Shown: positions 36,010 to 37,914 of the stretch, one piece after another
Layout of the letters: each line of letters begins with the position of its first letter
Position numbering within the stretch: position 1 is the first letter of the stretch
NCBI RefSeq assembly: GCF_048403405.1
Contig: NZ_CP183129.1
DNA from: Escherichia coli
GTDB taxonomy: Bacteria > Pseudomonadota > Gammaproteobacteria > Enterobacterales > Enterobacteriaceae
DNA: 64,000 nt
Strand: one strand, 5' to 3'
Translations under genes and position numbers: made by a program
Notes under the pieces: generated by a model
What the model was told of the DNA's origin: nothing
What the model saw: the letters and a program-made list of their open reading frames with translations, nothing else
Database searches by the model: none

Positions 36010-36699
36010 CTACTGGATCAGAAAATGACGGGCCAGTAGTGCACTGGTGAAATTCTTCTTCAAATAAAAGCCGCGTGGCAGCGTCAGAATCCGTTCGCCC
36101 CGGGCACCAATGGCTTCGGTAAGCGCTTTCGCATTCGCTGCTTTCGGTCGTATCTGTAAATATTCCCCGTGACGAGCGGTAATCCGCTCAACCTGACCGA
36201 GAACAATCATATCCATTAATTCTTCCCAGTCTTCGCGTAGCTGTCGGTCTTCCTCTTCATTCGGGCTCCACAGCAACGGTGATCCTACGCGACGCTGCGC
36301 TAGCGGGATGCTGCGCTCGCCTTCAACCGGTATCCACAGCACGCGTTTGAGCTTGTGGCGCACGTGGCTGGTTTCCCAGGTCACTCCGCTATTGCCCGTT
36401 AACGGGGCAACACAAACGAATGTTGTTTCCAGCGGACGACCAAGACTATCCACAGGGATAGTTTTAAGTTCCACGCCCAGAGCAGCAAAATCTTGCTCAG
36501 GTTTACTCCCTGCGCTGGCACCTAGCCAGATCTCCAGTAACACGCCAATCCAGCCCTTATCGCGTTTTAAATTCTCTGGCGTAACCAGCCCGGCAAGTGC
36601 CGCCAGTTCTCCCAATGTATAACCAGAAAGTTGTTGTGCTTGCGCTAACAACTGTTCTTCAGTTTCGGGAGGAGAGAGCAGTGGGCGAGGTTGGGACAT
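36010..36699 (-). CDS. mutH: DNA mismatch repair endonuclease MutH
   Basis: 229 aa beginning [46 protein letters not shown] upstream. Confidence 0.9.
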
Positions 36700-36849
36700 G
36701 TCACGATACCTTGGTTAAAAAACAAACAGCAATTATGTGCCGAATATTCGCAGTGTAACTTTTTCCACATGCGTTGTTCAATTCTCTGATTTATATTGCT
36801 TTTTAGGCTTCCTGTAATCGAGTTGCGCAACACTGCAACGGGTTTTCCA

Positions 36850-37250
36850 AATCTGGTCACTGAAAATAAACAGGATCTTACACCATGTTATCCACAGAAA
36901 GCTGGGATAACTGTGAAAAACCTCCACTACTGTTTCCATTTACAGCCTTGACGTGCGACGAAACTCCAGTTTTTAGTGGTTCAGTGCTTAACTTAGTGGC
37001 ACATTCTGTGGATAAATACGGCATTGGTTGATCTTTAGCCAACCCGTAAATGAGAGGTGTGACCTGGGTCACGAATTACTCTTTTTTATTACTCAAATTA
37101 CATGTAATGCATTGACTGATAATGAATATTTTAAAATGTCTATATCGGGCTTATTCAGAATGCTCCGGGTTTTCCCGTAGTAATTCCGTAGTTCTTCACA
37201 ACTCTATCCACAGAAAAGGTGAATAAAAACGGCTATCCACCCCTTCCTCT
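36850..37250. promoter_or_regulatory. DnaA-box cluster in the mutH-rppH intergenic region (DARS2-like DnaA-reactivating sequence)
   Basis: Perfect DnaA boxes TTATCCACA at 36888-36896 (+) and 37007-37015 (-, TGTGGATAA), near-consensus CTATCCACA at 37204-37212 and CTATCCACC at 37235-37243, within a 684-bp non-coding gap; DARS2 is recalled as mapping between mutH and ygdP (rppH). Element boundaries approximate. Confidence 0.5.
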
Positions 37251-37383
37251 GTTTATAACTCTGCACATAACTGTGAGTTATTCAATTGTTATTAGTGTGT
37301 AATGCCCTGCAGAGAGTGGTTTACCGTCTTCCTGGAGTATGAAACAATCATTCGTATATAAAGCTTTATTTTGAGGTAGTCCG

Positions 37384-37914
37384 GTGATTGATGACGATGG
37401 CTACCGCCCAAACGTAGGTATCGTGATTTGTAATCGCCAGGGGCAGGTAATGTGGGCCCGGCGATTTGGTCAGCACTCCTGGCAATTTCCGCAAGGCGGA
37501 ATCAACCCCGGAGAATCCGCAGAGCAGGCGATGTACCGTGAATTGTTTGAAGAAGTGGGATTAAGCCGTAAAGACGTTCGAATCCTTGCTTCAACGCGTA
37601 ACTGGTTGCGCTACAAATTACCGAAACGTTTGGTGCGTTGGGACACGAAGCCGGTTTGTATCGGCCAAAAACAAAAATGGTTTCTCTTGCAGCTGGTGAG
37701 CGGCGATGCAGAAATCAATATGCAAACCAGCAGTACACCAGAGTTTGACGGCTGGCGATGGGTAAGTTACTGGTATCCGGTCAGACAGGTGGTGTCATTT
37801 AAACGTGATGTCTACCGTAGGGTAATGAAAGAGTTCGCGAGTGTGGTGATGTCACTGCAGGAAAATACACCAAAACCACAAAACGCATCTGCTTATCGAC
37901 GTAAAAGAGGTTAA
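37384..37914 (+). CDS. rppH: RNA pyrophosphohydrolase (Nudix)
   Basis: 176 aa from GTG 37384; Nudix box [22 protein letters not shown]. Confidence 0.9.

Follow-up and report, generated by a model that had tools for sequence, protein, structure and literature searches.

Identification of the DnaA-box cluster between mutH and rppH of Escherichia coli as the DnaA-reactivating element DARS2

What is the role of a cluster of DnaA boxes that lies in non-coding DNA between two divergent genes? The question is raised by a stretch of 64 kb (64,000 nucleotides, hereafter the window, whose numbering is used throughout) from Escherichia coli, in which the divergently oriented genes mutH (- strand) and rppH (+ strand) are separated by a gap of 684 bp (36700-37383). 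RefSeq gives the same genes in MG1655 and in a strain whose gap is 100% identical to the one analysed here. In comparison with MG1655 the mutH-rppH gap is 99% identical, with eight substitutions and no indels, and at an identity of at least 95% it is found in 5424 of 5426 complete E. coli genomes. A scan of positions 36500-37600 against Rfam, at E<=1, gave no RNA family. A consensus scan returned one promoter-like site, on the mutH strand (36759-36732, with a -35-like hexamer at 36754-36759), and two terminator-like sites; neither kind was found above the level of shuffled sequences, and a usable map of the mutH or rppH promoters was not obtained.

An earlier inspection of the letters without database searches (the sequence-only reading) had drawn attention to this gap between divergent genes, describing two perfect DnaA boxes in opposite orientation, accompanied by near-consensus copies, at a density unlikely to arise by chance. 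Each of these statements was borne out. The two perfect TTATCCACA boxes (boxes VI and V in Table 1) are on opposite strands; the only other perfect copy in the 64-kb window is at position 10643, while 0.55 copies per window are expected from shuffled sequence. The Poisson probability of at least two perfect boxes in 684 bp is about 1.7e-5 with the shuffle rate, or 5e-4 with the rate observed in the window. When the published DnaA-box consensus, TTWTNCACA, was searched with at most one mismatch, the gap was found to hold 10 sites, where the remainder of the window predicts 1.45 (P ~3e-6), and the densest 455-bp stretch of the window, with nine sites of this type, falls within it. Over the whole window, one-mismatch matches to TTATCCACA were not enriched (19 versus 16.7 expected), so the signal is one of local clustering and not of composition.

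The place is the one that the sequence-only reading gave for DARS2, a non-coding DnaA-reactivating element that the literature puts upstream of mutH. We mapped onto the window the primers and oligos of three DARS2 papers (PMC4245941, PMC8682772, PMC4585315). All of them land at the expected places with 0-3 mismatches, and they delimit a fragment of exactly 455 bp (MutH-2 and MutH-4 sequences from the PMC4245941 and PMC8682772 supplements) together with the 35-bp core (Table 1). The fragment is identical to MG1655 at 449 of its 455 bases, and DARS2 of MG1655 (Fujimitsu 2009; PMC4245941; PMC8682772; PMC11724364) has the same locus and the same 455-bp extent; the two do not differ in the core, in boxes IV-VI, in IBS1-2, in the 21-mer or in boxes V-a, V-b and V-c, and what separates them is six SNPs. 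No sequence feature was seen that speaks against this identity. We conclude, with a probability of about 97%, that the cluster in the mutH-rppH gap is DARS2, the non-coding DnaA-reactivating element of E. coli. The present strain, being nearly identical to MG1655 here, would be expected to share the reactivating activity. DARS2 is already known, and as a discovery nothing new is added. The term 'DARS2-like', used in the sequence-only reading, named the right element but understated the case, since the primer map and the 449/455 identity make the cluster DARS2 itself; likewise, the interval chosen there (36850-37250) takes in most of DARS2 but leaves the left 55 bp, with FBS6, outside.

Table 1. 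Features of the mutH-rppH region, in window coordinates
Feature	Position	Strand	Basis or remark
mutH	36010-36699	-	ORF calls and RefSeq annotation of identical sequence
Full DARS2 fragment, 455 bp	36795-37249		MutH-2 at 36795-36813, MutH-4 at 37231-37249
Fis site FBS6 GTTGCAGTGTTGCGC, non-essential	36825-36839	-	sequence from PMC8682772 supplement, 0 mismatches
Conserved right-half block	36862-36957		GATC, weak box, box VI, inverted site, LexA-type box
ygdT, 48-aa ORF	36885-37031	+	RefSeq annotation; overlaps boxes VI and V
DnaA box VI, perfect TTATCCACA	36888-36896	+	between Ksh-34 and Ksh-35
LexA/SOS-box-like palindrome TACTGTTTCCATTTACAGCC (CTGT-N8-ACAG)	36928-36947		proximal end 228 bp from mutH ATG
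Negative-feedback DnaA cluster around box V	36995-37036	-	subV oligos, PMC8682772
Low-affinity box V-a	36995-37003		position altered in subV-a oligo
DnaA box V, perfect TTATCCACA	37007-37015	-	substitution primers
FBS2-3	37016-37040		critical 21-mer (37016-37036) and remainder of FBS2 15-mer (37026-37040)
Low-affinity box V-b	37018-37025		position altered in subV-b oligo
Low-affinity box V-c	37029-37036		position altered in subV-c oligo
Fis site FBS1 GGTCACGAATTACTC, non-essential	37067-37081		between Ksh-4 and Ksh-3; matches GnnYAnnnnnTRnnC on both strands
IBS1 TAATGCATTGACT	37105-37117	+	IHF-binding site, 1 mismatch to TAAnnnnTTGATW
IBS2 TAAAATATTCATT	37121-37133	-	IHF-binding site, 1 mismatch to TAAnnnnTTGATW; 3 bp from IBS1
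DnaA box IV TTATTCAGA	37151-37159	+	between substitution primers Ksh-30 and Ksh-31
Core, 35 bp removed in published deltaCore/deltaDARS2	37192-37226		flanked exactly by MutH-14/MutH-15 and by MutH-9/MutH-10 arms
DnaA box III TTCTTCACA	37192-37200	+	head-to-tail with box II, 3-bp gap
DnaA box II CTATCCACA	37204-37212	+	
DnaA box I TTATTCACC	37218-37226	-	inverted relative to box II, 5-bp gap; head-to-head pair
rppH (ygdP/nudH)	37384-37914	+	ORF calls and RefSeq annotation; ptsP next

Alignment to the published core, IHF and Fis sites, the check proposed with the sequence-only reading, showed all defined sites to be intact. The same 35 bp are omitted by the deltaCore primers (MutH-14, MutH-15) and by the independent deltaDARS2 arms of Frimodt-Moller 2015, and they read TTCTTCACA-act-CTATCCACA-gaaaa-GGTGAATAA (box numbering follows the later papers of the Fujimitsu 2009 group). 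Boxes III and II are thus direct repeats separated by 3 bp and box I is inverted at a distance of 5 bp, which is the arrangement of the DARS family; ADP release has been tied to the head-to-head placement of boxes I and II at 5 bp (PMC6868365), and box III is part of a 'double DnaA box' in the ChIP-seq Table 1 of PMC11317965. The catalytic core is built from three boxes with one mismatch each, at the right-hand end of the interval considered earlier, the near-consensus CTATCCACA being core box II. The perfect boxes that had attracted attention are real DARS2 sites, but they are boxes V (regulatory) and VI, not the catalytic core. DARS1, in the bioD-uvrB gap of MG1655, reads TAATACACA-tgg-TTATCCACA-ggaat-AGTGGATAA, which agrees with the DARS2 core in orientation, in the 3-bp and 5-bp gaps and at 24 of 35 bases, and both elements adjoin a DNA-repair gene. 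Box II of DARS1 is a perfect consensus, whereas the core boxes of DARS2 all carry one mismatch; according to the literature, DARS1, unlike DARS2, is without an IHF- and Fis-dependent regulatory region and works without both proteins.

The regulatory part is laid out as published. The IBS block moved in the traIL primers maps to 37105-37133 without mismatches, and from its centre the distance is 90 bp to the core and 91 bp to FBS2-3, in agreement with PMC11724364, where the IHF site is described as about equidistant from the DnaA and Fis sites of DARS2. The delta21 primers MutH-24/MutH-25 flank the 21-mer, which is identical to that of MG1655, and the 52-bp FBS2-5 oligo maps with a single mismatch, located outside boxes V, V-a, V-b and V-c. 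The negative-feedback module is accordingly present as a perfect box V with flanking low-affinity boxes that overlap FBS2-5. Boxes IV-VI, FBS1 and FBS6 were dispensable in published plasmid assays, and the published DARS2 literature that we surveyed assigns no role to box VI.

Binding of DnaA to the region in vivo has been reported for MG1655. In the DnaA ChIP-seq data of PMC11317965 (Table 1), DARS2 accounts for three peaks: 2969124 (coverage 78), 2969306 (199) and 2969501 (213); in the same table the coverage is 218 at oriC and 213 at datA. Although that paper names NC_000913.2, we read its coordinates as NC_000913.3, because only the latter fits the intergenic region and oriC. So converted, the peaks fall at window positions 37237 (core), 37055 (box V/FBS region) and 36860 (box VI). 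Since the published reagents map to the gap and the ChIP-seq peaks lie in it, neither a location of DARS2 elsewhere nor an absence of DnaA from these boxes, the two outcomes that were to count against the sequence-only reading, was found.

The mechanism of DARS2 is taken from the literature; our own analysis establishes that its sites are present and intact. In the published scheme, ADP-DnaA would bind the three core boxes (37192-37226), where the two protomers sitting on boxes II and I, which are inverted and separated by 5 bp, would pair head-to-head through their AAA+ domains and release ADP in a Gln208-dependent manner, with the box III protomer supporting assembly. IHF at IBS1-2 would sharply bend or loop the DNA, and Fis at FBS2-3 would contact the core DnaA dimer, stimulating ADP release; since IBS1-2 are almost equally far from the core and from FBS2-3, the IHF bend would bring Fis to the dimer. 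Apo-DnaA would then leave and take up ATP, so that ATP-DnaA rises before initiation at oriC. At high ATP-DnaA, an oligomer growing from box V over V-a, V-b and V-c would displace Fis and switch DARS2 off, while boxes IV and VI, FBS1 and FBS6 would be accessory. In support of the scheme, ADP release was reconstituted in vitro from the MG1655 fragment with purified IHF and Fis, mutants of the core, IBS and FBS lose DARS2 activity in vitro and in vivo, and the MG1655 fragment was shown to stimulate initiation (PMC4245941).

To follow the element in other species, we used a degenerate core pattern, CACA-N4-TATCCACA-N6-GTGNATAA, in one genome per species. The pattern has one match in the window and none in shuffled sequences; across species it was found at 120 loci or more, with about 2 expected by chance. 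Among the matches listed, DARS2-type loci (beside mutH and/or rppH) are found in E. albertii, Citrobacter, two Enterobacter, Superficieibacter, Acerihabitans, Yersinia, Photorhabdus, Providencia, Arsenophonus and Enterovibrio. We aligned nine Enterobacterales mutH-rppH gaps and scored each element. No variation is seen in boxes V and VI in any of the nine species, nor in the 5-bp core spacer, and the core boxes have identities of 0.94-0.95, a figure that is partly circular at the core positions specified by the pattern because the loci were retrieved with it; this circularity does not affect the conservation of the spacer, of boxes V and VI or of the remaining elements. The 21-mer scores 0.75 and IBS1-2 0.61, while FBS1, FBS6 and box IV (0.46-0.53) are near or below the gap-wide mean of 0.65. 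From Escherichia to Providencia, Photorhabdus and Yersinia, the T-tract of FBS2-3 is kept together with boxes V and VI and the core spacer.

The six SNPs that separate this DARS2 from that of MG1655 are all outside the DnaA boxes, IBS1-2 and the 21-mer: three are at the FBS6-side end (36808, 36810, 36813), two lie between FBS1 and IBS (37087, 37094), and the last, at 37037, has A in this strain and C in MG1655, so that FBS2 reads GGCTA instead of GGCGA and comes closer to the Fis consensus GnnYA. Restriction of polymorphism to FBS sites and spacers was described earlier in 59 strains (PMC4585315). Among the 5424 E. coli genomes with the gap, a 64-mer over the core is identical in 5365 and one over box VI in 5406, making the latter the least polymorphic segment tested. 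A 64-mer of the FBS1-containing spacer is identical in only 222, a number that overstates the variability of this spacer because the present strain carries minor alleles there.

Could the cluster be something other than DARS2? That boxes accumulated by chance in AT-rich intergenic DNA might be argued from the lack of window-wide enrichment of one-mismatch TTATCCACA matches, but this reading is refuted by the data: the local Poisson probabilities run from 1.7e-5 to 3e-6, the gap contains the densest 455-bp stretch of the window, the boxes are invariant across genera, and DnaA binds the region in vivo in the published MG1655 ChIP-seq. Conservation around boxes VI and V might instead reflect a real small protein gene, ygdT, with the DnaA boxes incidental. 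RefSeq annotates ygdT across E. coli, an AGGA lies 9 nt upstream of its ATG, and that stretch is invariant in nine species. Against this, only E. coli and E. albertii have an intact frame: in seven of the eight other aligned species it is broken or the ATG is absent, by in-frame stops (Citrobacter, both Enterobacter, Acerihabitans, Photorhabdus, Providencia), a 1-nt length difference (Acerihabitans, Yersinia) or loss of the ATG (Yersinia, Providencia). Conservation over ygdT is, moreover, block-like on the DNA motifs and without codon periodicity. We thus regard a genuine ygdT as very improbable; to judge from the alignment, ygdT is probably not a conserved gene but a spurious ORF, its apparent conservation being best explained by the DNA sites that it overlaps, since the frame is not maintained elsewhere. 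The doubtful ygdT ORF is all that RefSeq annotates in the gap, so the earlier statement that gene-centred annotation leaves the gap blank is correct in that DARS2 is omitted but overlooked this 48-aa entry.

The other readings accept DnaA binding and differ in its purpose. The boxes could be ordinary operators through which DnaA regulates the divergent mutH and rppH (or ygdT) promoters, with reactivation secondary or absent. The cluster does lie in a divergent promoter region; the single promoter-like site has a TTTTCCACA box (36761-36769) immediately upstream of its -35-like hexamer; the right half contains a conserved LexA-type box; and DARS1, to go by the title of Wurihan 2018, also overlaps a promoter region regulated by DnaA and LexA, that of uvrB. 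However, nucleotide exchange has been reconstituted with IHF and Fis and is lost in core, IBS and FBS mutants (PMC4245941), and the inverted 5-bp geometry is common to DARS1. We consider this reading unlikely, and, as operator and reactivation roles are compatible, an operator role would be at most an added function. A far less plausible proposal is that the cluster is mainly a passive sink that titrates DnaA, as in the original view of datA, buffering free DnaA and not exchanging its nucleotide. Its ChIP occupancy is very high, comparable to that of datA and oriC, the perfect boxes V and VI bind either nucleotide form, and a 2025 study makes the case that DnaA is indeed titrated by the chromosome (PMC12371093). 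Yet deletion of DARS2 or mutation of IBS1-2 or FBS2-3 lowers ATP-DnaA, extra copies of DARS2 lead to over-initiation, the opposite of what a sink would do (both PMC4245941), and the catalytic core is made of the weaker boxes, not of the perfect ones.

DARS2 can also be set beside datA and oriC. Like DARS2, datA is a non-coding cluster of DnaA boxes with an IHF site, strong DnaA binding (the ChIP coverage of 213) and IHF binding timed in the cell cycle; unlike DARS2, it promotes hydrolysis of DnaA-bound ATP, has another arrangement of boxes and does not require Fis. The flanks here are mutH and rppH, not the glyV-X-Y tRNA/queG region that PMC11724364 gives as the context of datA. The oligomerisation regions of oriC resemble the box V cluster in that a high-affinity box is flanked by low-affinity boxes at 2-3 bp, with cooperative loading of ATP-DnaA. 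An unwinding element or origin function, in contrast, is not described for DARS2, and PMC6868365 contrasts the head-to-head pair of boxes I and II with the arrangement at oriC.

The block around box VI is the most conserved stretch outside the core, and its conservation across Enterobacterales equals that of the core. It reads GATC (36874-36877), CTTACACCA (36877-36885), tg, TTATCCACA (box VI), gaaag, CTGGGATAA; the last corresponds to an inverted TTATCCCAG at 36902-36910, 5 bp from box VI, and shares 8 of 9 bases with I2 of oriC (CTGGGATCA, taken from the R5MI2 oligo in the PMC8682772 supplement). The 15-bp windows with a mean identity of at least 0.88 cover 36863-36901 and 36929-36957. This layout mimics the III-II-I geometry of the core. 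When the block was considered as an extended duplicate of the core, local alignment yielded only the 12-mer TATCCACAGAAA and no wider paralogy; by that alignment, the likeness is one of geometry, not of descent.

Next to box VI is the LexA-type palindrome. CTGT-N8-ACAG has one match in the window versus 0.55 expected, which alone is not significant, and the motif draws its weight only from its invariance (CTG and ACAG are kept in 9/9 aligned species) and from a report on Salmonella. There, a putative LexA box with a heterology index of 12.99 lies 228 bp upstream of mutH (PMC8072944, Table 1), the same distance as in E. coli, and mutH is induced 3.6-fold by nalidixic acid (PMC8072944); in Vibrio parahaemolyticus the mutH promoter is bound by LexA in vitro (PMC3323433). 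A search of the available literature for a link between LexA, or this box, and DARS2 gave none, the three texts containing both words mentioning LexA in passing or in references. We tentatively suggest, as a possibility against which the odds still stand, that the right half (~36862-36957), with its core-like triad and LexA-type box, might be a separate functional module, which the published deletion analysis may have missed because it was read out on multicopy plasmids. In favour of such a module are the core-level conservation, the position of the segment as the least polymorphic tested, and its location under the strongest of the three DARS2 ChIP peaks. If it exists, such a module could make mutH expression, or DARS2 activity itself, dependent on DnaA status and on the SOS response, in parallel to DARS1 within the DnaA- and LexA-regulated uvrB promoter region.

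Outside Enterobacterales, the core pattern was also seen in other contexts. Among the matches listed, DARS1-type triads lie upstream of uvrB in Vibrio, Shewanella, Colwellia and Aliidiomarina; the Vibrio triads agree with the literature, according to which DARS-like sequences occur in V. cholerae. Many more triads among the matches listed belong to Pseudomonas, Xanthomonas, Legionella, Nitrosomonas and other beta- and gamma-proteobacteria. PriA is the neighbour at 14 of the loci listed (in 11 the triad is <=150 bp upstream of the predicted start, with box I proximal), and XseA at five; a DUF1232/FKBP pair is another neighbour among them, in Pseudomonas. These distant matches were judged by neighbouring genes only and are not counted as DARS elements. 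A triad resembling the DARS core is repeatedly found upstream of priA and xseA, further repair and restart genes, in bacteria other than Enterobacterales.

Recognition of DARS2 from raw sequence indicates that such a scan can catch functional non-coding elements that are absent from annotation. For E. coli, the element at this locus is the main driver of the rise in ATP-DnaA before initiation, and it links the timing of replication, by way of Fis, to the growth phase and, by way of IHF, to the cell cycle.

The half of DARS2 around box VI, a perfect DnaA box, is as conserved in an alignment of nine Enterobacterales as the catalytic core of the element, and among 5424 E. coli genomes this block is unchanged in 5406. 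Published plasmid assays found the right half dispensable, and our search of the DARS2 literature found no role for it. The block layout mimics the geometry of the DARS2 core: CTTACACCA is followed, after a 2-bp gap, by box VI and, after a further 5 bp, by an inverted TTATCCCAG, which agrees with oriC I2 at 8 of 9 bases.

The same block contains a LexA/SOS-box-like palindrome, TACTGTTTCCATTTACAGCC, whose CTG and ACAG are invariant in the nine species. It lies 228 bp from the mutH ATG, and a putative mutH LexA box has been reported at the same distance in Salmonella (PMC8072944). DARS1 likewise adjoins a LexA-regulated gene, uvrB. No connection between LexA and DARS2 was found in the literature searched. 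Of the 8 other aligned species, 7 show stops, a frameshift or no ATG in the small open reading frame ygdT, which is annotated across boxes VI and V and is probably a spurious annotation carried along by conserved DNA sites.

Features of DARS2, of the remaining window and of DARS-core triads elsewhere
Feature	Position	Strand	Remark
DARS2 right half (box VI)	36862-36957		conservation block
ygdT	36885-37031	+	annotated small ORF spanning boxes VI and V
LexA/SOS-box-like palindrome	36928-36947		within DARS2
TTTTCCACA	36761-36769	+	consensus-class DnaA box, outside the 455-bp DARS2 fragment
TTATCCACA	10643-10651	-	perfect DnaA box, only other perfect copy in the window
Example triads	L079:7524-7553; L010:2212-2241; L012:8088-8117; L072:7602-7631
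Legionella triads	L034-L037; L110-L116

Beyond the DARS2 fragment, TTTTCCACA stands immediately upstream of the -35-like hexamer (36754-36759) belonging to the promoter-like site at 36759-36732, the only such site found on the mutH strand; DnaA might regulate mutH through this box as an operator. The perfect TTATCCACA is isolated (no neighbouring boxes were found) and lies within a hypothetical-protein gene adjoining decayed type III secretion genes, a frameshifted OrgA/MxiK and then EscJ.

At position 37037 this strain has A and MG1655 has C, changing FBS2 from GGCGA to GGCTA, which fits the Fis consensus GnnYA better; the remaining five DARS2 substitutions all fall in spacers. In the collection of 5426 complete E. 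coli genomes, the region is absent from 2 and split between two places (61% coverage) in at least one, and one match lies on a record labelled plasmid; the hit cited is H15, NZ_CP084026.1. These cases could be natural disruptions of DARS2 or assembly artefacts. The DnaA ChIP-seq peaks in Table 1 of PMC11317965 are labelled as NC_000913.2 positions. Those listed for DARS2 and oriC agree with the annotated MG1655 features in NC_000913.3 numbering only.

Scanning one-genome-per-species contigs with the triad pattern CACA-N4-TATCCACA-N6-GTGNATAA gave at least 120 matches (L003-L122), against about 2 expected by chance. Among the matches listed, triads outside Enterobacterales lie upstream of priA at 14 loci, of xseA at 5 and, in Pseudomonas, of a DUF1232/FKBP pair at 7, and DARS1-type triads precede uvrB in Vibrio, Shewanella, Colwellia and Aliidiomarina. 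Two Legionella genomes, L. rowbothamii and L. nagasakiensis, have 5 and 8 copies among the matches listed, each with a similar extended flank (for example, CTGCTCACAGGTTTATCCACAGATTTTGTGGATAA, then an A/T-rich stretch with an AAAAT end). The Legionella copies look like a dispersed repeat family carrying DnaA boxes.
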